NCBI GenBank assembly: GCA_037132275.1
Contig: JBAXPK010000005.1
Coordinates: forward strand, 3,122-67,121
Length of the DNA: 64,000 nucleotides
Reading direction: 5' to 3'
From: a bacterium
GTDB lineage: Bacteria; Verrucomicrobiota; Kiritimatiellia; CAIKKV01; CAITUY01
Below the pieces are notes generated by a model that was not told the origin of the DNA, made no database searches, and saw nothing but the letters and a program-made list of their open reading frames with translations. Both the position numbers and the translations under genes were made by a program. Shown in pieces: positions 1-57,418 of this stretch (positions within the stretch are counted from its first letter, which is position 1; each line of letters begins with the position of its first letter).

Positions 1-883
1 GTTGCCGCTGGCCCGGCCACCCGCGGCCAGGGAAGGAACGCCGGAGAAGGGGCAGGTACTCATGACCTCGCGGCTGTCGCTGACCCGCTCAGGTCGGCGG
101 CTCGACGTCGAAACCACGATCGACAACCCTTGCCGCGACCACCGCGTGCGGGTCTGTTTTCCCACCGGGATCGTGACCGACACCACCTACGCTGGCGGCC
201 AGTTCAACGTGGACGAGCGGCCCACAAAGCAGCCGGACATGTCCACATGGATCGAGACGGTGGACGGCTATCCGAATTTCGGTTTTGCCGGCCTGTCCGA
301 CGGGCGGTGCGGCCTGGCGATTCTCAATCTCGGTCTGCCCGAGTACTTTGTCGCGGGCGAAAAGAGCGATGTCCTGACCCTGACGCTGTTGCGGGCGATG
401 CAGCTCAGGCGCTGGCCGGAGGGAACCGGCGAGGCGCAGTGGGCTGGCGCCCAGCATCTGGGGCGGTTGACGGTGCGGTATGCGCTCTATCCGCATGCGG
501 GCGGCTGGCAACAAGGAAAACTGTGGCAGGCGTACCGCGACTTCTCGCGGCCGCTGGTCTGTTCAGAGATGATCGGCGCCGTGCGGACGGGTAAGGAGAG
601 CATGGTCGCGCTGAACGCCGCGGACCTGGAGGTGGCCTGCCTGAAGAAGGCGGAGAAAAACGACGGGTTGATCGTGCGGATCTGGAATCCGACGGGCGCG
701 GCGCAGGAAGGCAAACTGACGCTGGGCGTGCCGTTCAAGTCCGTGATCACGACGAATCTGAACGAAGACCCGCAGCCCGAGGCCGCAGTCAAACTACGCG
801 CGGTCGGTCGGCGCACCGCGCGCTTTACGGTTGGCGCCAAAAAGATTGTAACGCTGCTGTTCAGGCTGACTCCTGAACACTGA
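1..883 (+). CDS. 3' fragment (C-terminal ~293 aa) of a glycoside hydrolase, most consistent with the GH38 alpha-mannosidase C-terminal domain; 5' end lies outside the window
   Basis: ORF open from the window edge to TGA at 881-883. Segments 'GGQFNVDERPTKQP' and 'DGLIVRIWNPTGAAQEGKLTL' resemble the C-terminal beta-sandwich of GH38 mannosidases. Downstream genes are mannoside/N-glycan related. Confidence 0.45.
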   Translation, partial: LPLARPPAAREGTPEKGQVLMTSRLSLTRSGRRLDVETTIDNPCRDHRVRVCFPTGIVTDTTYAGGQFNVDERPTKQPDMSTWIETVDGYPNFGFAGLSDGRCGLAILNLGLPEYFVAGEKSDVLTLTLLRAMQLRRWPEGTGEAQWAGAQHLGRLTVRYALYPHAGGWQQGKLWQAYRDFSRPLVCSEMIGAVRTGKESMVALNAADLEVACLKKAEKNDGLIVRIWNPTGAAQEGKLTLGVPFKSVITTNLNEDPQPEAAVKLRAVGRRTARFTVGAKKIVTLLFRLTPEH

Positions 884-914
884 ACATTAAACACTGAACA
901 CTGAATACTGAGCA
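873..914. repeat. Six tandem heptanucleotide units CTGAACA/CTGAACA/TTAAACA/CTGAACA/CTGAATA/CTGAGCA overlapping the stop codon of the upstream gene and preceding the SD (AAGGAG at 917-922) of the next
   Basis: Read directly: 'ctgaacactgaacattaaacactgaacactgaatactgagca'. Five units contain TGA and one TAA, so with 7-nt periodicity stops fall in all three forward frames. Confidence 0.8.
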
Positions 915-930
915 CGGATAAGGAGACAAC

Positions 931-2133
931 ATGGCACATAAGTACGACATCATGGCGGCGGGGCATTTGTGTTTCGATGTGATTCCGAGTTTCCCGGACA
1001 CGGGGATTCTGGACATCGGCCACCTGCTGACGCCCGGCAAAATGCTGAACATGGGCGACGTCACCTTGAGCACCGGCGGGCCGGTATCCAATACGGGCAT
1101 CGGCCTTAAGATCCTGGGCAGCAAGGTGGTCTTCACCGCCCGCGTCGGCGACGACGATTTCGGCCGCATGACAATGGAGCGGCTGCGCCACAGCGGCAAT
1201 GCGGACGGCATCCGCGCGATGAAGAACGCCACCAGTTCCTACACGGTGGCGCTCGCGCCGCCCGGCATTGACCGCATCTTTCTGCACAACCCCGGCACGA
1301 ACGATCTGTTCGGCGCGGATGACCTTCAGCCGAAACTTATTGCCCAATGCCGGCACTTTCATTTCGGCTATCCCCCGCTCATGCGCCGCCTGTACTCCAA
1401 CGAAGGCCGTGAACTGGAGCGGATATTCCGGATCGCCAAGGACGCCGGAGTCACGACGTCGTGCGACATGTCCCTGCCCGACCCGGCAGCGCCCACCGGG
1501 AGAGCGCCCTGGAACAAGATCCTGAAGCGGATTTTGCCCTACGTGGACATGTACCTGCCCTCGGTGGAGGAGACCATGTTCATGCTGGAGCGGGAGGCGT
1601 ATCTTAAACTCAAGGCCAAGCATCGGAGCACGGATCTGCTCGACGTGCTGGGCGGCGCGGATTACTCGCGCCTGGCCGGCAAGGTGCTGGAGCTTGGCGC
1701 CAAAATGACCGCGCTCAAAGCGGGCCGCCGCGGGTTCTATTTCCGGACCCGGGAAAAGAGCGCCTTCAAGGGGTTGGGCGCGGCCCGGCCCGGGAACCCG
1801 GACAACTGGTCCTCGCGCGAGTTGTGGTGTCCGGCCTTCCTGTGCAAGAAGATGGGCAGCGCGACCGGCTCGGGCGACTCGGCCATTGCCGGGTTCCTGC
1901 ACGCCTATCTGAAGGGGATGGACCTCGAGCCGTGCCTCAAGGTCGCCAACTGCCTCGGCTGGCAGAATATCCAGGTGCTCGACGCGATCAGCGGCATCAA
2001 GACCTGGCAAGAGACCCAGGCCTTCCTGCGTCGCAACCCGCCGATGGAGGACTTGATCCTGGACAAGACGCCGGGCTGGACCTGGGACAAGACGTTTAAA
2101 CTGTGGCACGGCCCGAACGACGGGAAGCGGTAG
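931..2133 (+). CDS. PfkB-family carbohydrate kinase (ribokinase-like fold, 400 aa)
   Basis: C-terminal PfkB signature 'TGSGDSAIAGFL' (DTxGAGD-type). Length and overall pattern fit the sugar kinase superfamily. SD AAGGAG lies 9 nt upstream of the ATG. Confidence 0.6.
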   Translation: MAHKYDIMAAGHLCFDVIPSFPDTGILDIGHLLTPGKMLNMGDVTLSTGGPVSNTGIGLKILGSKVVFTARVGDDDFGRMTMERLRHSGNADGIRAMKNATSSYTVALAPPGIDRIFLHNPGTNDLFGADDLQPKLIAQCRHFHFGYPPLMRRLYSNEGRELERIFRIAKDAGVTTSCDMSLPDPAAPTGRAPWNKILKRILPYVDMYLPSVEETMFMLEREAYLKLKAKHRSTDLLDVLGGADYSRLAGKVLELGAKMTALKAGRRGFYFRTREKSAFKGLGAARPGNPDNWSSRELWCPAFLCKKMGSATGSGDSAIAGFLHAYLKGMDLEPCLKVANCLGWQNIQVLDAISGIKTWQETQAFLRRNPPMEDLILDKTPGWTWDKTFKLWHGPNDGKR

Positions 2134-2181
2134 AAAATGCCGTAAGGGCAAGAAGCAGTATCGTAAGCTCCTGGGGAGGGC

Positions 2182-3507
2182 ATGATGGTTAAGATGAAAA
2201 AAGCAGTTGCTGAATTCAAGTCGGCGGGAGCGGACACATCGTGGTTTGTCAGGGACCGGTTCGGGATGTTCATCCATTGGGGGCTCTATTCCATGGCCGC
2301 CCGCCATGAATGGGTCCGGCATAATGAGGCGATTCCCAACGAGGTCTATGATCGCAAGTATTTCAAGCGGTTCGAGCCCGATCTGTATGATCCGGACGCC
2401 TGGGCGGAGGCGGCGGCCGGCGCCGGGATGAAGTACTTTGTGATCACCACCAAGCATCACGAGGGGTTCTGCCTGTGGGACTCGAAGTTGACCAACTACA
2501 AGGCCACCAACACGCTGGCGGGGCGCGACCTGCTCAGGCCCATGATCGACGCCTTCCGGAAGCGGGGCATCCGGGTGGGGCTCTATCACTCGCTGATCGA
2601 CTGGCATCACCCCGATTACATTATCGACCCGCACATCGGCCCGTATAAGTCGCTCCCGGCCGAGGAGCGCGCCAAGATGAATGCAGGCAGGGATATGGCC
2701 CGCTATGCGGAATACCTGCGCGGGCAGACGCGTGAACTGCTCACCCAGTTCGGCGACATTGATATCCTCTGGTACGATTTCAGCTACCCGAAAGACGATG
2801 GCACGGGCAAGGGCCGGAACGACTGGCAGAGCGAGAAGTTGGTGAAGATGATCCGGAAGCTGCAGCCCCGCGTCATTCTTGACGACCGCCTCGACCTGCC
2901 GGGATCGGGCGATGTCAAGACGCCGGAGCAGGTTCAGCCCCGCGAGTGGCCTTGCGTGGACGGCAAGCCGGTCGTGTGGGAGGCCTGCCAGACCTTTTCC
3001 GGGTCCTGGGGGTATCACCGCGACGAACAGTCGTGGCGGGATACCGACGAACTGATCCGCACGCTGATCGACTGCGTGAGCAAGGGCGGCAACCTGCTTT
3101 TGAACGTGGGACCGACCGCGCGCGGGGAGTTCGACGAGCGGGCTGTGGCGCGGCTCAAGGGCATCGGCGAGTGGATGCGCCGCCACAGCCGGAGCATATA
3201 CAGCTGCACTCAGGCGCCTGCCGGGTTCCGGTGTCCTGAAGGCTGCAAACTCACCTACAACCCAGAACGGAAGCGGCTCTATGTGCATATTCTGAACTGG
3301 CCGTACAAGCATCTGTTCCTGGACGGCGGGGACTACGCGAACCGCGTGGAATATGCGCAACTGCTCCACGACGGCTCGGAGGTCCAGATGGGGATCGATG
3401 AGTGGCATGGGCGCCAACTCGGCGTCGGCAAGGAAACGACCTGTCTCATGCTGCCGCAGACCAAGCCCAATGTCCAGATTCCTGTCGTGGAACTGTTTTT
3501 GAAGTAA
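2182..3507 (+). CDS. alpha-L-fucosidase, GH29; no signal peptide, so predicted cytoplasmic
   Basis: 'RFGMFIHWGLYS', 'KYFVITTKHHEGFCLWDS' and 'RVGLYHSLIDWHHPDY' are classic GH29 motifs. Confidence 0.8.
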   Translation: MMVKMKKAVAEFKSAGADTSWFVRDRFGMFIHWGLYSMAARHEWVRHNEAIPNEVYDRKYFKRFEPDLYDPDAWAEAAAGAGMKYFVITTKHHEGFCLWDSKLTNYKATNTLAGRDLLRPMIDAFRKRGIRVGLYHSLIDWHHPDYIIDPHIGPYKSLPAEERAKMNAGRDMARYAEYLRGQTRELLTQFGDIDILWYDFSYPKDDGTGKGRNDWQSEKLVKMIRKLQPRVILDDRLDLPGSGDVKTPEQVQPREWPCVDGKPVVWEACQTFSGSWGYHRDEQSWRDTDELIRTLIDCVSKGGNLLLNVGPTARGEFDERAVARLKGIGEWMRRHSRSIYSCTQAPAGFRCPEGCKLTYNPERKRLYVHILNWPYKHLFLDGGDYANRVEYAQLLHDGSEVQMGIDEWHGRQLGVGKETTCLMLPQTKPNVQIPVVELFLK

Positions 3508-18015: not shown

Positions 18016-19191
18016 ATGAAGTTCACCTGTGATGTGTTGATTGTGGGCGGCGGTGTGGCTGGTGTTCCGGCCGCCGTGGCGGCGGCCAGGGCTGGCGCGG
18101 ATACCCTGTTATTGGAGAAGCGGGACTTTCCGGGCGGAACCGGGGTAATCGGTCTCCATAGGACGATTTGCGGCCTCTATTGGAATGGCGAAGCCGTGGG
18201 GACACCTCTCCCGTTACTCAACGGTGGGCTGGTGCGGGAAGTGTGTGTGCGTCTGCATGACCTCGCGCCGGAACGGCGGCCGGTCAGGCTCGGTAAAGTC
18301 GACGTGCTGCCCTATGACTCCGAGCACCTCCGGGCGATCTATAGTCAATTGATGGGCGCCGAGGCCCGGTTGCGCGTCTTGTTGGGTGTTGAAGTCACCG
18401 GCGTTTGCCTTGAAGGGGGGCGCGTGTTGACCGTGGCGGCGGGGGAGCACACGATCATTCCGCAGGTCGTGGTGGATGGTTCGGGCGACGGGGTTGTCAT
18501 TCGGGGCGATCCGGCCTTGCATGAGCCGCCGCCGCTAATCGGGCGTCAATTGGCGGGTTACGTTATTCATTTGGACGGGCTCAGCGGCAGCGACGATATG
18601 CTGCCCATCAAGGTGCCCTATGCCATCCGGCAGGGGGTTGACGCGAAGACCCTTCCTGCGTGTCTTCGGTTTACAACGTTTGTGGCGGGAGGGGGCCGGA
18701 ATGAGGGCTGGTGCAAGTTGAGTGTTCCTTCGGGAACGCCCCTTGCGACGGCGCAGGAACTGGCGCAGCGGTTGCATGACGCGCTTCAGGAGGCCTTGCC
18801 TTCGGCCCGGGAGTCGCGGATCATCGGCAGTTCACCGGACGTGCTCGAGCGTGAGGGCGCGCGGCTCAAGGGGCTGTATACCCTTACGGCGGAGGATGTA
18901 TTAGGGGCGCGTCAATTCCCGGATGCTATTGCCCGGAGCGCCTGGCCGATTGAATTATGGGATCCGGAACGGGGGCCCACATATCGTTATCTTGAACCGG
19001 GAAAGGCCTGCGGCATTCCTGCGGGGTGCCTGAAAGCGGCGGCTGCCAGTAATTTATATTGTGCTGGACGCTGTATTTCGGCTACGCATGAGGCCTTGGC
19101 GGCAACCCGTGTGATGGGAACCTGCATGGCGCTCGGTGAAGCGGCCGGCCGGGAAGCGGCTTTGCAAAGTGGTGGCGGTGAACAGAGTTAA
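18016..19191 (+). CDS. FAD-dependent oxidoreductase (FAD_oxidored/PF12831-like)
   Basis: N-terminal dinucleotide-binding motif 'DVLIVGGGVAGVPAAVAAARAGADTLLLEK'. Confidence 0.6.
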   Translation: MKFTCDVLIVGGGVAGVPAAVAAARAGADTLLLEKRDFPGGTGVIGLHRTICGLYWNGEAVGTPLPLLNGGLVREVCVRLHDLAPERRPVRLGKVDVLPYDSEHLRAIYSQLMGAEARLRVLLGVEVTGVCLEGGRVLTVAAGEHTIIPQVVVDGSGDGVVIRGDPALHEPPPLIGRQLAGYVIHLDGLSGSDDMLPIKVPYAIRQGVDAKTLPACLRFTTFVAGGGRNEGWCKLSVPSGTPLATAQELAQRLHDALQEALPSARESRIIGSSPDVLEREGARLKGLYTLTAEDVLGARQFPDAIARSAWPIELWDPERGPTYRYLEPGKACGIPAGCLKAAAASNLYCAGRCISATHEALAATRVMGTCMALGEAAGREAALQSGGGEQS

Positions 19192-20620
19192 CATAGTTGA
19201 TGTCATCCGTCGGGAGACGGGGGCGGTTCATGGAAACGTGGCGATCGTGGATGGTGCGATCGAGCTTTCCTATGGGCGGCTTCTGGATGCTGTAGACGGG
19301 GTTGTGGCGGCTTTGAAGCAGCAGGGTGTCCAGCCCCTGGATCGTGTCGCTTTCCTGTGTGAGGACTGCGCCGATTATATCATCGGCAGCCTCGCCATTC
19401 TCCAGTTGGGCGCCGTGGTGGTTCCGGTGTCGCCTTCCCTGATGGGGGACGAATTGGCGGAGTTGCTCGAACGCATGGATGTGACGGCTGTGCTGAGCGA
19501 CGCGTCGGTCGATCAAGAAAAGGGCGGTATTCTGTTGACCGGTTGCGGCTTTATGGCCCGTGAGTTTGTGATGCATGGTCGTGTGGCCCGGAACGATTTT
19601 CCGGAAGACTATAAAAGCCTGAATCCGGCCTTTATCCGCTTCTCTTCCGGGACCACCGGCTCAAGCAAAGGGGTGTTGCTGTCGCATGAAACGATCCTGG
19701 CTCGCACGGAAGCCGCTGACCAGGGACTTCGGATTACCAGCGTCGATACCGTGATCTGGGTGCTCTCGATGAGTTTTCATTTTGTCGTCACTATTCTACT
19801 CTACCTGCGCCGGGGGGCGACGGTGGTGATTTGCCGCCAACCCTTTCCTGAATCATTTCTTGAGGCGGCCAAGGGACGGAAGGGGACCGTATTTTATGCC
19901 GCTCCTTTCCACTACCATGTTCTTGCCACATCGCCGTTGGTGTCGGCAGATTGTCTCAATGGGGTCCGGTTGGCGGTCTCGACGGCGATGAAACTGTCGC
20001 GCGAGACGGCGGTGGCGTTCAAGACAAAGTTCGGGTTTGATCTGGCCGAGGCCTATGGGATCATTGAGCTCGGATTGCCCTTTATCAATACGGAGGACCG
20101 CCCGAAGAAGCCGGGTTGTGTCGGGCATCTCCAGCGGGGCTATGAGGTCAGGATTGAGTCGCCTGGCACAGATGGCGCGGGGGTGATTTTGATCCGTGGG
20201 CCGGGGCTGTTTGATGCCTATGTATCGCCTTGGAAAAGCCGTCGGGATGCGGTGCAGGACGGCTGGTTCAATACCGGGGATGTGGGGCGGCTGGATGCCG
20301 ATGGCGATTTGACCCTCCTTGGACGTGAGAAAAACGTCATCAACTTTGTTGGCATGAAAATATTCCCTTATGAAGTTGAGGATGTGCTGGCCTCCCATCC
20401 GGCGATTCAGGAATGCCGGGTGTACGGCGAGGCTCATCCGCTTTTTGGGCAGATGCCGTGTGTGGATGTGGTGGTGAAACCAGGCTTGGCGGCGCCCGGC
20501 GCGACGGATCTGCGGCGATATTGTTATCAGCGGCTGGCCGCGCATAAAGTTCCCAAGGAATTCCGGTTTGTCGGGCATCTGGCTCGAACAGTGAGCGGCA
20601 AAATCAAGAGGGCCGGGTGA
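19136..20620 (+). CDS. AMP-binding (adenylate-forming) enzyme, fatty-acyl-AMP/CoA ligase-like
   Basis: AMP-binding motif I 'FSSGTTGSSKGVLLSHE'. The C-terminal 'GWFNTGD' and 'GREKNVINFVGMKIFPYEVE' fit the ANL superfamily. The track start at 19136 overlaps the upstream gene by 56 nt. An in-frame GTG at 19238 (after the upstream stop at 19189-19191) is a more likely start. Confidence 0.75.
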   Translation: MKRPAGKRLCKVVAVNRVNIVDVIRRETGAVHGNVAIVDGAIELSYGRLLDAVDGVVAALKQQGVQPLDRVAFLCEDCADYIIGSLAILQLGAVVVPVSPSLMGDELAELLERMDVTAVLSDASVDQEKGGILLTGCGFMAREFVMHGRVARNDFPEDYKSLNPAFIRFSSGTTGSSKGVLLSHETILARTEAADQGLRITSVDTVIWVLSMSFHFVVTILLYLRRGATVVICRQPFPESFLEAAKGRKGTVFYAAPFHYHVLATSPLVSADCLNGVRLAVSTAMKLSRETAVAFKTKFGFDLAEAYGIIELGLPFINTEDRPKKPGCVGHLQRGYEVRIESPGTDGAGVILIRGPGLFDAYVSPWKSRRDAVQDGWFNTGDVGRLDADGDLTLLGREKNVINFVGMKIFPYEVEDVLASHPAIQECRVYGEAHPLFGQMPCVDVVVKPGLAAPGATDLRRYCYQRLAAHKVPKEFRFVGHLARTVSGKIKRAG

Positions 20621-21342
20621 ACATGAAGCCGACGCTCACACAAGACGAGGAGCAGGTCACCGCGCATGAATACGACCAATGGCTTGCCCGGGATTCGCTG
20701 AGCGCGCGATGGGTCAGATTCTGGTTTTCACCCAAGCGGACGCTCTGGCTAAACACACAAATCCCCAAACTTCCTGCCGCCATTTCACTCAAACCCGGGG
20801 ATTCCATACTGGATATTGGTTGTGGATATGGGGGATTGCTGATCTATCTGCATCGGCGGCTCGCGGCGACCGCAGGCAGGCTTCAGTTAGAGGGGGTGGA
20901 TAGTTCCCCGTTGATGGTCCAGCGAGCCAGAGACGAGATTCAGCAGCGTGGACTGGAGTCCGCCATTCGTATCGAGCAGGGAGTCGCAACGCAACTGCCT
21001 TATGAAGACCATTCCTTTGACGTTATTTTATGTGCCTATGTGATCAAGCACCTGTCTGATGAGTCACTCCGGCACATGCTACGGGAGGTAAAGCGGGTTC
21101 TGAAGCCCGGGGGCAGGTTCTGCCTTTGGGAGGCGACGCCCTCCCGATTCGGGTTCATGAATGTGTGGAATCTGATGCTGTTACGAATCGGGATTTCAGT
21201 GATTCATTTGCGCTCCGCTGAGGACGTCGGTAGAATTCTGGAAGAAGAGGGCTGGGTGATTCAGCAACCCTTTGGCCACGGCCTGTATTATTTCTATCCG
21301 CCGCTCCCCCGCGCGGGGTTCATTGTGAGACGTAAGGCGTGA
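20617..21342 (+). CDS. class I SAM-dependent methyltransferase (241 aa)
   Basis: Motif I 'ILDIGCGYGGL', post-I acidic 'LEGVDSS' and motif 'LKPGGRF'. The start overlaps the ligase stop (ATGA). Confidence 0.7.
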   Translation: MNMKPTLTQDEEQVTAHEYDQWLARDSLSARWVRFWFSPKRTLWLNTQIPKLPAAISLKPGDSILDIGCGYGGLLIYLHRRLAATAGRLQLEGVDSSPLMVQRARDEIQQRGLESAIRIEQGVATQLPYEDHSFDVILCAYVIKHLSDESLRHMLREVKRVLKPGGRFCLWEATPSRFGFMNVWNLMLLRIGISVIHLRSAEDVGRILEEEGWVIQQPFGHGLYYFYPPLPRAGFIVRRKA

Positions 21343-21436
21343 GACGCAAGAGGTGAGACGTAAGACGTAAGACATTTCGAATTTCACGTTTCACATCTTG
21401 CGTCTCACGTCTTACCTCTCACGTCTCACCTCTTAC
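21325..21436. repeat. ~110-bp imperfect palindrome built from heptanucleotide units: 7 forward units (GTGAGAC/GTAAGGC/GTGAGAC/GCAAGAG/GTGAGAC/GTAAGAC/GTAAGAC), a 28-nt spacer, then 5 reverse-complement units (GTCTCAC/GTCTTAC/CTCTCAC/GTCTCAC/CTCTTAC). Likely a bidirectional terminator or REP-like element.
   Basis: Read directly. The stop codons of both convergent genes (methyltransferase TGA 21340-21342; XRE regulator stop at 21426-21428) lie inside the repeat arms. The last residues of both proteins (..VRRKA, ..GKRKR) are encoded by the repeat units. Confidence 0.8.
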
Positions 21437-21782
21437 GCTTTCCTCCCCATCCGGTGGGGCCGTCGGCGGCTTTGAGTGCCCCGTACTGATTTTGGCTGTG
21501 TGAGGACAGGTTGGTTACGACCAAATCCAGACCCTTGGAGGGATCCAGGCCGAGGGCGAAACAAAGGCTCACGAAATCGATAACCTCAAGGCGGCGTTCA
21601 CCATTTTCGGTTTTGGCGACCCAGGTATGCGATACGCGCAAACGGGCCGCTACGGTGCGCATGGAAAGATGTCTGGCAAGGCGATTGGTTCGTAGCCAGT
21701 TCCGCAGGGAATCCCTCGCCTCGCTCTGGAGTGTTTTATCCATGACTTGAAGACAATACCGCACCAAGCGCCTATTCTCCAA
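21426..21782 (-). CDS. XRE-family helix-turn-helix transcriptional regulator (118 aa)
   Basis: HTH_3-like segment 'LRNWLRTNRLARHLSMRTVAARLRVSHTWVAKTENGER'. Confidence 0.6.
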   Translation of the reverse strand: MENRRLVRYCLQVMDKTLQSEARDSLRNWLRTNRLARHLSMRTVAARLRVSHTWVAKTENGERRLEVIDFVSLCFALGLDPSKGLDLVVTNLSSHSQNQYGALKAADGPTGWGGKRKR

Positions 21783-26332: not shown

Positions 26333-26374
26333 GGCGCTCGCGGCGGCCAGCGGCGTGGCCGCCCTACCCTCCTA
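26330..26374. terminator. GC-rich hairpin between convergent genes (stem GGCGGCCA / loop gcggcg / TGGCCGCC, extended by TAGGGC...GCCCTA); bidirectional terminator candidate
   Basis: Read directly: 'tagggcgctcgcggcggccagcggcgtggccgccctaccctccta'. Both convergent stop codons flank or lie in the stem. Confidence 0.5.
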
Positions 26375-29300: not shown

Positions 29301-29482
29301 GAGGCCATGGTGGCCGGGCTGGCGCCCGGATAGGCGACGGTCACCTGGATGACGGGATAATCCACGGTGGGCAGGCTGTTTACAGGAAGTTGGAAATAAG
29401 CCCACACGCCGCCGACCACCATCAGGGTGGTGAGCAGAATCGTCATAACAGGACGCCGGATAAATACTTCTGAAAAGCTCAT
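26372..29482 (-). CDS. RND efflux transporter permease, HAE1/AcrB-CusA family (1036 aa)
   Basis: 12-TM RND architecture, N-terminus 'MSFSEVFIRRPVMTILLT...', two large periplasmic loops, length ~1036 aa. Confidence 0.9.
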   Translation of the reverse strand: MSFSEVFIRRPVMTILLTTLMVVGGVWAYFQLPVNSLPTVDYPVIQVTVAYPGASPATMASTVATPLENEFTQISGLESMYSDNRQGISTLTLSFSLNRNVDLVAPDVQAAITRATRNLPTDLPSPPTYQKFNPSDAPIYYVLLYSDIMPHGELYDYANHVVARKLSMIEGVSKVEAFGAKNAVRIQFSPEKLAAYQIGVDELALVLKAGTANIPGGSLNGAQRTFVIEPQGQLRTAREYGELIITTRNNAPIRVKDVARCVDSIANDLVNIRYTTADEPIHSQCVVMRLSRVSGANTVAVANRVTQALEESRRELPSTITMVTMYNGSEPIKESLRDVQLTVGIALLMVILVIFFFLGRIRETVVPSIVLPISLLGTFLLMLPSNFSLDILSLMGIILAVGFLVDDAIVVLENTVRHLEEGKKPIPAALQSMKEISFTVLSTSAALIIVFLPLVFMSGAVGRNLREFALTVIFAIIVSTLLALTLSPMMCARILHHEKAPNAVQRGITTFIQGMIRQYARALHFQLRHKWLALVAWVVCILGAGILYFVLPGDFLPPGDSSFIFGAMIMPQGSSTEQMQAYQTKVMGLLRKEPAVARVGSVTGIFPGADQSMGFVFVRLKSPREREPREPIDQISFKLMMKAMMIPDGLCAMKAMPVLKISSGVDSTAQGSDYGYLLKGLDRETVYKTAFLLEREIRTIPFLNPFNTQNSVKLNMPRLNVTIDRTRASALGVTATSIEQALALSFAGGYATQFTTDQDQYQVIPEIQKSNQRLPDDLALLFLRSTYGPLVPVKSLIKWTEEAGPQNIPHAQQHEAATISFSPFPGVPLGVVTAVIEAKAAAVLPPTVQGSFIGDAVEFKKSIASLGILLLIAIFLKYIVLGMLYESYIHPFTILTTLPVALFGGFLTLFIFGSQLSLYAYIGVFVLLGLITKNGILMVDFALQRKVEGMNSYDAIHNACVVRFRPILMTGLCAILGAMPIAMGFGADASSRKPLGLVIVGGMIFAQVITLFVTPGIYLYMEKVQDKFFKPRTDLE

Positions 29483-29527
29483 AGTCGTCTCACTTTTTGC
29501 ATCTCACATTTCACGTCTCACGTCTTA
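29483..29527 (-). repeat. GTGAGAC-family heptanucleotide tandem array filling the 42-nt intercistronic spacer between the MFP and RND genes
   Basis: Minus-strand reading: GTAAGAC GTGAGAC GTGAAAT GTGAGAT GCAAAAA GTGAGAC GACT then the ATG of the RND gene. The MFP stop codon TAA is inside the first unit. Confidence 0.7.
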
Positions 29528-30658
29528 CTTTTTCGATGCGCCTTGTGGCGGTAGTTTCGAGGCATCCATGACGGTGGCGCCGGGCCGCATCATCACCAGC
29601 CCAGTGGTGATAACTGATTCGCCAGCGCCAACTCCCTCGGTAAGTTGGAGCAGGGTGTTGTGGCGCAGTCCCGCCTTTACGTGGCGGAGTTCCGACACAT
29701 TGTTCGAATTGACGACATACAGGTAGGCGCCATCTTTCCCAAACTGAACGGCGCTTTCCGGAACGAGAATGGCATTGGGGATGAAGTTCACAACGATCCG
29801 GATATCGATGAACTGTTTTGCCCAAAGCGCCCGATTGGGATTCGGCGCCTCGCCGCGGAGCAGGATGGTGCCGGTCATCGGATCCACGGCGTTGTCTATG
29901 AATGAGAGGGTTCCCGGGTAGCTGTTGGTGTCGCCGCGCGGCGTGATCTCGACCGGAATGGGGCCAGCCGACAGGGCGCTCCGGATTGCGGGGAGGTATT
30001 GCTCCGAGAGGGTACACTCCAGCCGGAGCGGGTTATTGTTCCGGATATTGGTCAGGCGCGTCATGCCCGCTGCCACCAGGTTCCCGGCATCCACATAACG
30101 CTTGGAACAAATTCCCTCGATGGGCGACACGAGCGTACAGCGGGACAAGTTGAGCAGCGCCTGCTCAAGGGCCGCCTGGTCAATGGCCAGTTGCGCCTCA
30201 AGGGCGGTGACCTTGTTTTTGATGGTATCAAACAGCTCCTGTGAGATGAGCCGTTTTTCCAGCAGTGGCTGGTTGCGATCGAGGGTGATCCGGGCGAGTT
30301 CCAAGGAGGATTTGTCAGCCGCGATCATGCCTCCGGCCTGTTGGACGCGCGTTTGGTAATCCCGCGGATCGATTTGGAAGAGCGGCTGGCCATTGGTGAC
30401 AATCGCGCCTTCCTGGAACAGCACATGGGTCAGTTGGCCCGAGACTTGGGGAACCATGTCCACGCTCTCTTTGTCCTGTGTCGTTCCATAGGTGGTGATA
30501 ACGACGGGTAAATCCGCCTTGATGGCAGGCGCCATCAAGACCATGAGCGGGGGTGCGGAAGGGGGGCCGCCCGCCTGTTTCTTACCGCAGGCGCTGGCGA
30601 AAAGCGCAAGGGCGGTGAGGGTGAAGAGTGTGGTGGTGAAACGTGTGCTGCTATTCAT
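29525..30658 (-). CDS. RND efflux periplasmic adaptor (membrane fusion protein, AcrA/HlyD-like), lipoprotein
   Basis: Start set at 'MNSSTRFTTTLFTLTALALFASACGK' (lipobox-like 'FASAC') rather than the upstream ATG at 30736. Coiled-coil/lipoyl/beta-barrel pattern typical of MFPs. Confidence 0.75.
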   Translation of the reverse strand: MNSSTRFTTTLFTLTALALFASACGKKQAGGPPSAPPLMVLMAPAIKADLPVVITTYGTTQDKESVDMVPQVSGQLTHVLFQEGAIVTNGQPLFQIDPRDYQTRVQQAGGMIAADKSSLELARITLDRNQPLLEKRLISQELFDTIKNKVTALEAQLAIDQAALEQALLNLSRCTLVSPIEGICSKRYVDAGNLVAAGMTRLTNIRNNNPLRLECTLSEQYLPAIRSALSAGPIPVEITPRGDTNSYPGTLSFIDNAVDPMTGTILLRGEAPNPNRALWAKQFIDIRIVVNFIPNAILVPESAVQFGKDGAYLYVVNSNNVSELRHVKAGLRHNTLLQLTEGVGAGESVITTGLVMMRPGATVMDASKLPPQGASKK

Positions 30659-56112: not shown

Positions 56113-57387
56113 ATGCTGGATATCAAATTGATTCGGGATCATGAGGAAACAGTGCGGCAGGGGCTGACAGCTCGTGGCGCCAGTATGGAATTCCTGGATG
56201 CGGTGGTGGCGGATGACGGCGTGCGCCGCAGGCTGGTCACCGAAGTCGAGAACCTGAAAAACCAGCGCAATGTGGTTTCAAAGGAAATCGGCATGCTCAA
56301 GAGCAAGGGGCAGGATACCGCAGCGACGCAGAAATCCATGCGCGAACTGGGCGACTTGATCGTTCAGAAGGATAATGAGGTGCGAGAGTTGGAGTCGCGT
56401 CTCAAGGATAATCTGCTCCGTATCCCGAATCTTCCTCACTCGAGCCTCCCGGACGGCCTGGATGCCGCGGCAAATGTTGTCGCCCGTGTCCATGGCGAGC
56501 CGCGGTCATTTGTCTTCCAGCCGAAGGGACATGTCGAGGTGGGAGAGCGGCTGGGAATTTTTGACTTCACCCGTGCGGCCCGCATGACCGGATCCGGCTT
56601 TCCGCTGTATCTCGGCATGGGCGCCAAACTTCAGCGTGCGCTTATCCAATTCATGCTCGATCTCCACACGACCAAGCATGGCTATACCGAAATGCTGCCC
56701 CCGTTTGTGGTGAATACGGCCTCCATGACCGGTACCGGCCAGTTGCCGAAAATGGCGGAGGATATGTATCACGCCACCGATGATCTCTGGCTGATCCCCA
56801 CGGCTGAGGTGCCGGTCACAAATTATTATCGGGACGATATCATTGATAAACCCCTGCCTGTTTACCTGACGGCCTATACTCCCTGTTTCCGCCGCGAGGC
56901 GGGCGCCGCCGGCAAGGAAACCCGTGGCATCATTCGCGTCCACCAGTTCGATAAGGTTGAGATGGTGAAGTTTGTCGAGCCCTCCACCTCCTATGCCGAA
57001 CTGGAGTCGCTGGTTGTGAATGCCGAGGAGGTGCTCAAGCGGCTGGGGCTGCATTACCGAGTCTTGTCGCTCTGCAAGGGGGATATCAGTTTTGCGGCGG
57101 CGAAATGTTATGATTTGGAATTGTGGGCCCCGGGCCAGAACGGGTGGCTTGAAGTATCGTCTTGCAGTAATTTTGAATCGTTCCAGGCGCGGCGTGCGAA
57201 TATCCGGTACCGTCGTGCGGATGGTAAACTCGACTTTGTCCACACCCTGAACGGCTCCGGTGTTGCCTTGCCACGGTTAATGGTCGCCATCCTTGAGAAC
57301 GGCCAGGAAGCCGACGGTTCGGTGACCCTGCCGGAAGCCATCGTGCCCTACATGGGCGGCATCCGGCGTATTGAACCAGTGGGGTGA
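56113..57387 (+). CDS. serS: seryl-tRNA synthetase
   Basis: N-terminal coiled-coil arm 'MLDIKLIRDHEETVRQGL'. Class II motifs 'FRREAG...TRGIIRVHQFDKVE' and 'GSGVALPRLMVAILENGQ'. Confidence 0.9.
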   Translation: MLDIKLIRDHEETVRQGLTARGASMEFLDAVVADDGVRRRLVTEVENLKNQRNVVSKEIGMLKSKGQDTAATQKSMRELGDLIVQKDNEVRELESRLKDNLLRIPNLPHSSLPDGLDAAANVVARVHGEPRSFVFQPKGHVEVGERLGIFDFTRAARMTGSGFPLYLGMGAKLQRALIQFMLDLHTTKHGYTEMLPPFVVNTASMTGTGQLPKMAEDMYHATDDLWLIPTAEVPVTNYYRDDIIDKPLPVYLTAYTPCFRREAGAAGKETRGIIRVHQFDKVEMVKFVEPSTSYAELESLVVNAEEVLKRLGLHYRVLSLCKGDISFAAAKCYDLELWAPGQNGWLEVSSCSNFESFQARRANIRYRRADGKLDFVHTLNGSGVALPRLMVAILENGQEADGSVTLPEAIVPYMGGIRRIEPVG

Positions 57388-57418
57388 GATGTGAGATGTG
57401 AGGCGTGAGACGTGAGTT
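57384..57418 (+). repeat. five tandem heptanucleotide units GTGAGAT/GTGAGAT/GTGAGGC/GTGAGAC/GTGAGTT spanning the serS stop codon and the tilS start codon
   Basis: Read directly: 'gtgagatgtgagatgtgaggcgtgagacgtgagtt'. The serS TGA (57385-57387) and the GTG start of tilS (57405) are both inside the array. The first tilS residues (M-R-R-E-L) are encoded by the units. Confidence 0.75.

Follow-up and report, generated by a model that had tools for sequence, protein, structure and literature searches.

The DNA analysed here is one 64-kb stretch of a contig (the window). Within it, a class I SAM-dependent methyltransferase gene and an HTH_31 (XRE-type) regulator gene converge on a palindrome, and tandem arrays of heptanucleotides lie at the ends of other genes. 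The features are as follows, in window coordinates.

873 to 915, plus strand: array of a second heptamer family, (CTGAACA)x6, running from the last codons of a GH38 C-terminal-domain gene
20617 to 21342, plus strand: class I SAM-dependent methyltransferase gene, of which the last five codons (VRRKA) and the TGA at 21340–21342 are array units 1–3
21325 to 21373, plus strand: seven forward heptamers, in sense orientation to the methyltransferase gene; left palindrome arm
21374 to 21383: loop between both arrays, ATTTCGAATT, with approximate limits, the first reverse units being degenerate
21384 to 21437, minus strand: reverse array of about eight units on the sense strand of the HTH gene; right palindrome arm
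21426 to 21782, minus strand: HTH_31 (XRE-type) regulator gene facing the methyltransferase gene, with its TGA (21428–21426) in reverse-array unit 2
29483 to 29528, minus strand: GTRAGAC-family array between a membrane-fusion protein gene (MFP) and an AcrB-type pump gene
57384 to 57418, plus strand: GTRAGAC-family array between serS and tilS

The 110-bp palindrome is two facing arrays of one heptanucleotide simple-sequence repeat (GTRAGAC and near variants) and not one element. Its forward units are, in order and exactly as a preliminary description of this DNA had listed them, GTGAGAC, GTAAGGC, GTGAGAC, GCAAGAG, GTGAGAC, GTAAGAC and GTAAGAC. That description had also placed TGA in each forward unit, which needs correction, since three units carry TAA and GCAAGAG has no stop at all. 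Its 28-nt spacer followed by five reverse-complement heptamers was right about the existence of reverse units, but there are about eight of them and the supposed spacer holds three degenerate ones (ATTTCAC, GTTTCAC and ATCTTGC), the real loop being about 10–14 nt. On the minus strand the reverse array reads GTAAGAG, GTGAGAC, GTGAGAG, GTAAGAC, GTGAGAC, GCAAGAT, GTGAAAC and GTGAAAT. Tandem Repeats Finder reports periods of 7/14 at 21325–21373 and 7/21 at 21384–21437, with 6.6 and 7.7 copies of the period-7 unit. An inverted-repeat search gives 49-nt arms (21325–21373 and 21388–21436) that are 78% complementary and 14 nt apart, and in a shifted register the arms reach 89% complementarity over 37 nt. 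Variant units come in a common order in both arms (GCAAGAG versus ATCTTGC), which had suggested inverted duplication of a single element, an idea that was dropped. Mirrored unit order in inverted pairs is not above chance (1 of 14 informative pairs; p = 0.43 for the window; permutation over 28 pairs), and hence there is no sign of compensatory maintenance of pairing.

Each array overwrites the last few codons of its gene and supplies the stop codon. In the methyltransferase, homologues end in GFIARRP or GFIAVRPSS and similarity ceases at GFI, where the array starts. As first described, the real stops of both genes fall inside repeat units (unit 3 of the forward and unit 2 of the reverse array) and both proteins end in repeat-encoded tails, VRRKA and KRKR. 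Because each sense unit carries a stop and 7 is not a multiple of 3, all three frames are closed within 21 nt. The forward array has stops in all three plus-strand frames and the reverse array in all three minus-strand frames, and read opposite to their own sense strands the arms contain none, so that the all-frame stops first described for both strands exist on each arm's own sense strand only.

The same unit recurs elsewhere in the window. Allowing at most one mismatch, GTRAGRYGTRAGRY matches 16 times in this 64 kb of one contig, compared with 0.53 expected and with none of 100 shuffles reaching 16, and all 16 matches are confined to the palindrome and the arrays at 29483–29528 and 57384–57418. 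Among periods 4–12, period 7 is the only one that yields tandem arrays. The units at 29483–29528 are GTAAGAC, GTGAGAC, GTGAAAT, GTGAGAT, GCAAAAA and GTGAGAC; the MFP stop TAA (29527–29525) lies in unit 1 and the ATG of the AcrB-type gene is at 29482. Between serS and tilS the units are GTGAGAT, GTGAGAT, GTGAGGC, GTGAGAC and GTGAGTT, with the serS stop TGA (57385–57387) in unit 1 and the tilS start called at a GTG in unit 4 (57405). In the CTGAACA array the stop of the GH38-domain gene (881–883) is in unit 2, and the array ends 16 nt before the ATG of a PfkB kinase gene. The preliminary description had proposed a dispersed family at gene ends rather than a one-off, and this is borne out by five arrays at three loci and a sixth of another unit within 64 kb, in addition to arrays in many other genomes. 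Tabulated against stop codons, all six window arrays lie at gene ends and supply stops; all six are in sense orientation to Pfam-confirmed genes and begin at these genes' stop region or inside it, and every sense array closes three frames within 21 nt, with no stops in the other direction. The arrays are a dispersed repeat family of this Kiritimatiellia-like genome. They sit at 3′ ends with the first in-frame stop within units 1–3, so unit number does not alter the protein, and a phase-variation (contingency) repeat, which would need a 5′ coding or promoter site, was rejected.

The MAGs and isolates with GTRAGAC arrays span more than 20 phyla; the arrays often lie at the ends of real genes and are 3 to more than 29 units long. 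Cultured carriers include Lutibacter agarilyticus DSM 29150, Halomonas eurihalina DSM 5720, Rufibacter sediminis H-1 and Sinimarinibacterium thermocellulolyticum HSW-8. A genome collection gave more than 120 GTRAGAC matches, on several contigs per MAG in some genomes of distant phyla. That number alone does not show GTRAGAC to be special, and in viral contigs three permuted heptamers are commoner (20–33 matches) than GTRAGAC (5). The placement of arrays in other genomes is asymmetric: of 150 arrays, 63 are entered from the sense side by an open frame of at least 100 codons, and 28 from the other side. Of 20 sense-side frames sampled at random, 8 are real genes whose Pfam profiles run complete to the C-terminal end, and the 19 other-side frames include one complete gene and three genes cut mid-domain. 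An earlier count, in which 59% of arrays ended a long sense ORF, was inflated because all-frame stops cut any open frame, real or spurious, and spurious open frames are numerous in high-GC genomes; the symmetric test and Pfam give lower values that are still asymmetric. An inverted partner lies within 200 nt of 46 of the 154 arrays (about 30%; median gap 37 nt), and a convergent gene is present at 39 of these 46. One 9-unit array is inserted in frame, in its stop-free orientation, within a DegT/ArnB-type aminotransferase. Among independently found arrays, 34% are of GTRA-type units (8.9% expected). Variation is lowest at position 1 of the unit, a G that is not part of the stop codon. Stop-destroying transitions (T2 to C, 11; A4 to G, 15) occur about half as often as transitions at positions 5 and 6 (31 and 26), and the G/A exchange at position 3, which keeps the stop, is common. 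Other heptamer arrays of the same loci lack a stop on either strand in 38 of 78 cases.

Relatives carry the same junctions in different states; for the serS–tilS and MFP–AcrB loci the identities given are those of the protein used as finder (SerS or AcrB). In a 69% relative (L123) the gene order is kept, there is no array, and the HTH regulator homologue (positions 1720–2070 of L123, minus strand) overlaps the methyltransferase gene by 17 nt. At serS–tilS, a 93% relative retains five decayed units, a 92% relative has a different unit, and relatives at 89% and 83% have no array; decaying units lose their stops. The MFP–AcrB junction consists of an ordinary hairpin spacer in two relatives, has another heptamer (TGAAATC) across the stop in a third, and in a fourth is an 18-nt spacer that includes a Shine-Dalgarno site. 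At these two loci unit number and sequence differ among relatives that are 80–93% identical, and the comparisons show the arrays to be lineage-specific and short-lived. A model in which the stop-codon context (NNG TGA G) seeds arrays locally fits the serS and MFP arrays and the TGAAATC array of L271, but fails for arrays that overwrite 8–15 nt of coding sequence and for the DegT insertion, and was rejected.

The long hairpin that had been expected on either strand is supported by RNA folding prediction: the palindrome transcript is predicted to form a stem of about 45 bp, at −70.7 kcal/mol on the plus strand (z-score −10.7) and −71.3 kcal/mol on the minus strand (z-score −9.9). Single arrays are predicted to fold no better than shuffles, as unstructured RNA. 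The palindrome resembles an intrinsic terminator in having a stable predicted hairpin between convergent genes on both strands, and differs in lacking a U-tract, in holding both stop codons (methyltransferase and HTH_31) within the stem and in building the stem from a dispersed repeat. Intrinsic terminator stems are usually 5–15 bp. Neither arm is followed by a T-run, no terminator-like site was called at the palindrome, and T-runs follow only 11 of 55 distal-arm tails of inverted pairs (7% by chance). A canonical bidirectional intrinsic terminator, as had been suggested, is thus not what the palindrome is: a predicted hairpin is there but the direct U-tract is not. With the stops inside the stem, a terminating ribosome would melt part of it. 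Rfam gave no match in the window at gathering thresholds; the hits below threshold were chance matches to microRNA-precursor hairpins (17–34 bits versus the 50–107 needed).

In kind, the GTRAGAC arrays match described coding-strand heptameric repeats that lie at or over stop codons, often in inverted pairs (PMC4692102, PMC4679880): they are tandem 7-nt units at multiple loci, placed at stop codons, in part as inverted pairs, and variable among relatives. The statement that this is not a named repeat family holds for the unit GTGAGAC, which appears in no paper of the literature searched, but not for the kind, which those two papers describe. In Xanthomonas and Nostoc, GGGAATC or GGGGA(C/T)T heptamers form about 180 tandem-unit loci per genome (Rehm et al. 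2015, PMC4692102). They are enriched in non-coding DNA, in co-directional and convergent gaps, and rare between divergent genes; 3′ of genes they lie on the coding strand, no more than 50 bp away from the stop codon or overlapping it; and 70–75 cases per genome are two convergent arrays able to form stem-loops. Their unit number and sequence differ between close relatives and they have no established function; the unit is G-tract-rich and quadruplex-forming, with four units preferred (PMC4692102). The GTRAGAC arrays share with them the coding-strand placement at stop codons, the convergent pairs and the variation between close relatives. Unlike GGGAATC, GTRAGAC has no G-tract, occurs here in a different host phylum and closes three frames, whereas inspection of GGGAATC finds no stop in either orientation; and 83% of the Xanthomonas arrays are common to two species (PMC4692102), whereas GTRAGAC arrays differ among relatives 89–93% identical in SerS or AcrB.

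A second precedent is the TAACTGA direct repeat of marine Beggiatoaceae, cyanobacteria and Bacteroidetes (MacGregor 2015, PMC4679880), amplified in a few genomes of distant phyla. Forward translation of TAACTGA gives stops and overlap with CDS ends is therefore at most 18 nt; the arrays are unstructured RNA, mostly intergenic in ‘forward’ orientation, and come in sets of 2–6 copies described mainly relative to the downstream start, the largest class ending 1 nt before it, with one inverted pair found (PMC4679880). The likeness lies in a stop-bearing heptamer, unstructured arrays and amplification in distant phyla; GTRAGAC differs in being anchored at the upstream stop, in reaching 5–29 units and in having about 30% of arrays in inverted pairs. 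As cited in PMC4679880 and PMC4692102, heptamers are also known as LSSR and cyanobacterial STRR sequences (Mrazek et al. 2007; Mazel et al. 1990), in many bacterial genomes no class of long tandem repeats is more abundant than heptanucleotides, which are mostly intergenic, and a bias of the replicative polymerase towards 7-nt slippage has been put forward for them. As represented in those two papers, the general LSSR/STRR surveys contain neither the GTRAGAC unit nor anchoring at stop codons nor inverted pairs.

We consider it probable that these are tolerated stop-bearing heptamer repeats, gained and decaying by lineage, whose facing pairs fold into a terminator-like or 3′-end-protecting hairpin. 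Arrays would arise in particular lineages through insertion, 7-nt slippage or both and then decay by point substitution, and their survival would be limited to sites of little harm. With a TGA or TAA per unit, a sense array could replace a gene end at the cost of few residues, while in the stop-free orientation an array would be tolerated only if it lay past a native stop or was inserted in frame. A single array would be present as unstructured RNA. Where both of two convergent genes carry arrays, each transcript would read its own purine-rich array and then its complement, giving the hairpin of about 45 bp; this would most likely be terminator-like or 3′-end-protecting without a U-tract, insulating both genes, and may be a by-product rather than the cause of the arrays' existence. 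Gain and decay, tolerance and the unstructured single array can for the most part be read from the observations above, and we infer the hairpin step. Slippage alone does not explain arrays that overwrite 8–15 nt of coding sequence, nor the DegT insertion, and a pure filter for arrays made harmless by their stops does not predict that the G at position 1 varies least. We found no ordinary mechanism of array spread, and the four window loci and the DegT insertion showed neither a flank signature nor a target duplication.

Several other explanations were weighed. That the low-complexity repeat produced an artefact of assembly or sequencing is hardly credible: the source is a short-read metagenome assembly and repeats and palindromes are prone to mis-assembly, but the independently made Logan assembly of run SRR7053541 gives an identical palindrome, both flanking genes run in frame into the arrays, related arrays occupy the homologous serS–tilS site in other samples, and such arrays are also contained in long-read MAGs and isolate genomes. 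A mobile element, with a palindromic unit placed at gene ends by a dedicated transposase, would account for dispersal in the genome, the palindrome at 21325–21437, homologous sites without an array in relatives, the in-frame array in a conserved aminotransferase and amplification on multiple contigs per MAG in distant phyla. REP/BIME sequences are intergenic at gene 3′ ends, often between convergent genes, with hairpin transcripts and hundreds of copies, and a REP unit is an imperfect palindrome of 20–40 nt that has a conserved GTAG head and is moved by a RAYT transposase. In the present family a 7-nt direct repeat is the unit, three of the four window loci are single arrays with neither palindrome nor structure, and a palindrome forms only where two arrays face. 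Arrays contain from 3 to more than 29 units, the two arms of a pair do not mirror each other, sister lineages have different heptamers at the same junction, and no transposase was noticed beside the arrays. A MITE would have a fixed length, terminal inverted repeats and a target-site duplication; length varies here, and neither terminal inverted repeats, target-site duplications nor shared flanks occur at the four window loci or the DegT insertion. The REP/MITE-like role once suggested fails on these points, and we regard a mobile element of this type as improbable.

A strand-specific RNA signal is given just as little weight. Its GUGAGAC units would be bound by a conserved factor (an oligomeric RNA-binding protein, ribosomal protein S1 or a cold-shock protein), or would form a UGA/GUG termination–reinitiation relay across intergenic gaps. 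GTGA is a start/stop overlap; at 29528–29482 three mini-ORFs connect the MFP stop to the AcrB start via GTGA, GTGA and ATGA; and the tilS start is called at an array GTG in two lineages. The low variability of the G of GTG and the excess of GTRA-type units point the same way. The MFP–AcrB chain is real, but such a relay is automatic in any pure (GTGAGAC)n array and is not conserved: in relatives the corresponding junctions are empty of arrays or occupied by another heptamer. GTG is absent from GTAAGAC units and from the CTGAACA, TGAAATC and AYAGACC arrays at like sites, and convergent gene ends offer no downstream gene for reinitiation. We know of no match for all unit variants among anti-Shine-Dalgarno pairing, an RNA polymerase pause consensus, Rho loading (C-rich antisense) and heptamer binding by cold-shock proteins. 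Protein binding has been proposed for TAACTGA repeats (PMC4679880). Somewhat less remote, though still unlikely, is that GTRAG-type arrays are the product or target of a specific activity common to more than 20 phyla, either machinery that writes tandem GTGAGAC units into DNA at gene boundaries and in frame within genes, or a conserved RNA signal read after the stop codon, such as the UGA/GUG relay or a periodic platform for protein binding; the amplification in unrelated genomes, the conserved position 1 and the clean insertion inside a conserved enzyme are the observations that bear on it. We give about the same low probability to a selected stop fence, that is, fail-safe stops in three frames that catch read-through or frameshifted ribosomes before they reach the neighbouring gene or the hairpin. 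As a description of the sequence the fence stands: every sense array has all-frame stops within 21 nt and none in the other direction, and a real stop is abutted or contained by all six window arrays. The scarcity of stop-destroying transitions and the common stop-keeping exchange at position 3 also fit selection. Against selection, stop-free units are tolerated (GCAAGAG, GCAAGAT, GCAAAAA and GGGAGTT) and decay loses stops, among other heptamer arrays of the same loci about half are stop-free on both strands, Xanthomonas GGGAATC arrays are equally placed at stops (PMC4692102) with a unit that on inspection holds no stop trinucleotide, the same junctions in close relatives have no arrays, and a single in-frame stop suffices, which leaves 5–29 units superfluous. 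A published survey reports having found no sign that bacteria are under selection for additional 3′ stop codons (PMC6764699).

Heptameric repeats are widespread in bacteria and their function was left open in PMC4692102 and PMC4679880. The present arrays add a new heptamer unit and a new host lineage (Kiritimatiellia), and the amplification of GTRAGAC in many phyla includes cultured, testable strains. Comparisons of filled and empty sites show arrays being gained at gene junctions, overwriting gene ends and decaying, with direct cases in which an array supplies a stop codon, a start codon or an in-frame protein insertion. For annotation this means that gene ends and starts in arrays are repeat-encoded and that gene callers put starts on the GTG of a unit. 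Should inverted pairs prove to end transcripts or make them more stable, they would offer an alternative to classical terminators that is derived from repeats.

The palindrome is built from a pair of facing arrays, each in sense orientation and both from one dispersed family of GTRAGAC-type heptamers, and in each arm the array supplies the stop codon of its own gene. The left array reads GTGAGAC GTAAGGC GTGAGAC GCAAGAG GTGAGAC GTAAGAC GTAAGAC (21325-21373), exactly as in the preliminary description, and the reverse-complement units that it placed after this array extend to 21437. Tandem Repeats Finder reports period 7 (super-periods 14 and 21) in both halves, and an inverted-repeat search gives arms of 49 nt, 14 nt apart and 78% complementary, or 37 nt at 89% in a shifted register. 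Three details needed correction. TGA had been assigned to each forward unit, but three units have TAA and GCAAGAG has no stop. Part of the supposed 28-nt spacer is made up of degenerate reverse units, three in number, leaving a loop of approximately 10-14 nt. Stops in all frames, proposed for both strands, are present on each arm's own sense strand, but in the opposite direction there are zero. The arrays lie at the ends of two convergent genes:

20617-21342, + strand: class I SAM-dependent methyltransferase gene, left array on its sense strand
21426-21782, - strand: HTH_31 regulator gene, right array on its sense strand

Both stops do fall inside units, as had been claimed: the methyltransferase has five array-encoded codons (VRRKA) and then a TGA in unit 3, and the regulator has the C-terminal residues KRKR and a TGA in unit 2 of the right array.

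Within the window the heptamer-family pattern matches 16 times, where shuffles predict 0.53, with all 16 matches at 21325-21436, 29501-29528 and 57384-57418, and period 7 alone among periods 4 to 12 yields arrays in the window. These three loci, together with arrays in other genomes, bear out the earlier view of a dispersed family rather than a one-off. The arrays beyond the palindrome include a second heptamer family:

29528-29483, - strand: MFP-AcrB array, opened by the TAA stop of the membrane-fusion protein (MFP) gene and ending 4 nt short of the ATG of an AcrB-type pump gene
57384-57418, + strand: serS-tilS array, opened by the serS TGA stop
873-915: (CTGAACA)x6, starting within the final codons of a GH38-family gene, with its end 16 nt upstream of a PfkB kinase gene

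From the stop positions at the individual arrays, all six arrays in the window are in sense orientation to the upstream gene, with its stop in unit 1, 2 or 3. In gene calls, tilS starts at the GTG of heptamer unit 4 (57405 in the window, 11293 in both L001 and L258, stretches from other genomes); the residues that come next (RELxIN) show conservation across lineages, and the array thus seems to provide the stop of serS as well as the start of tilS. The path from MFP stop to AcrB start (29528-29479, - strand) runs through three unbroken mini-ORFs of 4-5 codons with the overlaps GTGA, GTGA and ATGA, a chain that is an automatic outcome of the unit and lacks conservation in the relatives L270-L273. 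An ordinary G+C-rich hairpin, GGGCGCTCGCGGCGGCCAGCGGCGTGGCCGCCCTACCC, at 26333-26371 separates the AcrB gene from its convergent neighbour and illustrates the conventional form of a spacer between convergent genes in this genome.

Filled and empty sites were compared at three junctions in relatives, ranked by identity in the protein used to find them. SerS puts the organism close to Kiritimatiellia and Verrucomicrobia MAGs, and its relatives form a graded series. At serS-tilS, the 93% relative retains five decayed units in place (GTGAGAT GTGAGAA GTGAAAT GTGAGCC GGGAGTT), the 92% relative has another unit after serS (GTAGGCT GTGGGCA GTAGGCT; L261/L262 11281-11310), and the 89% and 83% relatives have spacers of 40 nt and 8 nt without repeat. 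At MFP-AcrB, an ordinary hairpin occupies a spacer of 76-78 nt in two relatives (92% and 89%), one 89% relative has the heptamer TGAAATC over the MFP stop (L271 9958-9987), and in the 80% relative the spacer is 18 nt long and contains a Shine-Dalgarno site. At the methyltransferase/HTH junction, the closest relative found (L123, 69%) has the same gene order with a 17-nt convergent gene overlap and no repeat. Methyltransferase homologues end in GFIARRP or GFIAVRPSS; the window protein matches them through GFI, and the array starts exactly there, where one relative reads GCC AGA CGG against GTG AGA CGT in the window, a short similarity. In this clade the arrays are therefore lineage-specific gains at gene junctions that differ between sister lineages and then decay by substitution, behaviour unlike that of conserved functional sites. 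The same relatives' stretches hold a CTGAATA/CTGAATC inverted pair (L271 5992-6098), with units related to the CTGAACA of the window, and an AYAGACC array directly after an outer-membrane-factor gene (L272 8713-8780). The acyl-CoA ligase/methyltransferase/HTH cluster that holds the palindrome (19136-21782) is absent beside the ABC-transporter genes in a 92% relative (L270 17469-20663), so that, judged from this comparison, the cluster itself is variable gene content.

The search beyond the locus that had been suggested was run across species as an exact scan for (GTRAGAC)x3, one genome per species, and gave at least 120 stretches. Among the matches listed, carriers span more than 20 phylum-level lineages and include several isolates, and several MAGs give two to four separate contigs each. 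In viral contigs, examined as a control, three permuted heptamers gave 20-33 matches against 5 for GTRAGAC, so the abundance of genome matches alone does not show that GTRAGAC is special. The 8-kb blocks around the matches listed contain many further period-7 arrays. Of the 70 arrays at a distance above 300 nt from every search-pattern match, 24 have GTRA-type units (34% against 8.9% expected), with no enrichment of NTRA units generally in these 70; among 78 arrays built from other units, 38 are free of stops on both strands, and position 1 is the least variable of the heptamer. Some arrays are very long, with between 22 and more than 40 units (L119 5589-5804, L039 6042-6224, L066 3770-3922 and L094 4637-5071), and in L094 a long (GTAAGAC)n array, in which GGGAGAC units are interspersed, comes immediately after a (TTGTCAG)n array.

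Array orientation is biased relative to real genes. An initial count, in which 59% of arrays ended a long sense ORF, was inflated because an all-frame-stop array also cuts spurious frames, and a symmetric test and Pfam samples were used instead. On the sense side, 63/150 arrays are entered by an open frame of 100 codons or more, and on the other side 28/150 (matches listed). Random sampling gave 8 real genes, with Pfam profiles complete to the C-terminal end, among 20 sense-side frames; on the other side 1 of 19 was a complete gene and three were genes cut mid-domain. One of these three shows that stop-free array copies are able to sit in frame within genes:

L083 (Candidatus Aerophobetes MAG) 2267-2330: 9-unit array, stop-free orientation, in frame within a DegT/ArnB-type aminotransferase gene (1717..3027, - strand)

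The insertion contributes FTSYVLRLTSHVSRLTSHLSPP to a loop, on either side of which one half of the protein aligns to a solved structure, and it adds approximately 32 residues at a place where the solved homologue 4lc3_A has 8; no target-site duplication is visible there. Opposite-strand genes also enter arrays mid-domain in L036 (Chitinophagaceae MAG; TilS, with Pfam ATP_bind_3 covered up to position 95 of 182) and L113 (Bdellovibrionales MAG; WecG, with Glyco_tran_WecG covered up to 74 of 168); these genes may be disrupted, or may represent additional in-frame insertions. An inverted partner lies within 200 nt of 46/154 arrays (median gap 37 nt; matches listed), 39 of these 46 with a convergent gene, and the arms share no order of variant units beyond chance.

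The palindrome is a real and striking feature that was rightly seen from the start; an artefact is highly improbable, given that a second assembly (Logan) of run SRR7053541 contains the identical palindrome. The long hairpin proposed for either strand is predicted for 21310-21450, at -70.7 kcal/mol (z -10.7 against shuffles) on the + strand and -71.3 (z -9.9) on the - strand. For single arrays, predicted folding is no better than that of shuffles. The palindrome, suggested to be REP/MITE-like, is neither a REP nor a MITE, and a mobile element of this type is quite unlikely. It is also not a canonical terminator, a bidirectional one having been suggested, with no terminator-like site with a T-run called at the palindrome; T-runs are uncommon after the distal arms of inverted pairs in other genomes, at 11/55 arms against 7% by chance. 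Rfam gives no match in the window at gathering score. A strand-specific RNA signal or termination-reinitiation relay seems just as improbable as a mobile element, and a stop fence maintained by selection is unlikely too.

The finding of opposed, lineage-specific, stop-supplying arrays, taken together with the following inferred steps, makes up a composite account that we consider probable. Insertion and slippage would generate the arrays and harm would act as a filter, the stop in each sense unit making an array tolerable at a gene end. Where two arrays meet, the hairpin could serve as a structure that resembles a terminator or protects 3' ends but has no U-tract. Any function for the predicted hairpin is a tentative suggestion, and the classification is held much more confidently.

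Comparable repeats are known. Xanthomonas genomes each carry approximately 185 GGGAATC heptamer arrays, over-represented in non-coding DNA between co-directional ORFs and, downstream of ORFs, located on the coding strand at most 50 bp away from the ORF's stop codon or overlapping it; in 70-75 cases two arrays are in convergent orientation, most arrays are transcribed and their length differs between species (Rehm et al., PMC4692102). TAACTGA arrays are known from Beggiatoaceae, cyanobacteria and Bacteroidetes; forward copies can overlap gene ends by at most 18 nt because their translation gives stop codons, and copies within ORFs are in reverse orientation (MacGregor, PMC4679880). As cited in both studies, Mrazek et al. 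(2007) identified heptanucleotides as the commonest class of long simple-sequence repeats in prokaryotes and suggested a slippage bias of 7 nt. We found no mention of a dimer of the GTRAGAC-type unit in the papers searched, and the window heptamer is very probably a new member, in unit and in host, of this known kind of bacterial repeat. GTRAGAC arrays are also carried by the cultured strains Lutibacter agarilyticus DSM 29150 (L037), Streptomyces sp. NPDC041068 (L055), Sinimarinibacterium thermocellulolyticum HSW-8 (L092), Rufibacter sediminis H-1 (L105) and Halomonas eurihalina DSM 5720 (L109), which could serve for experiments.
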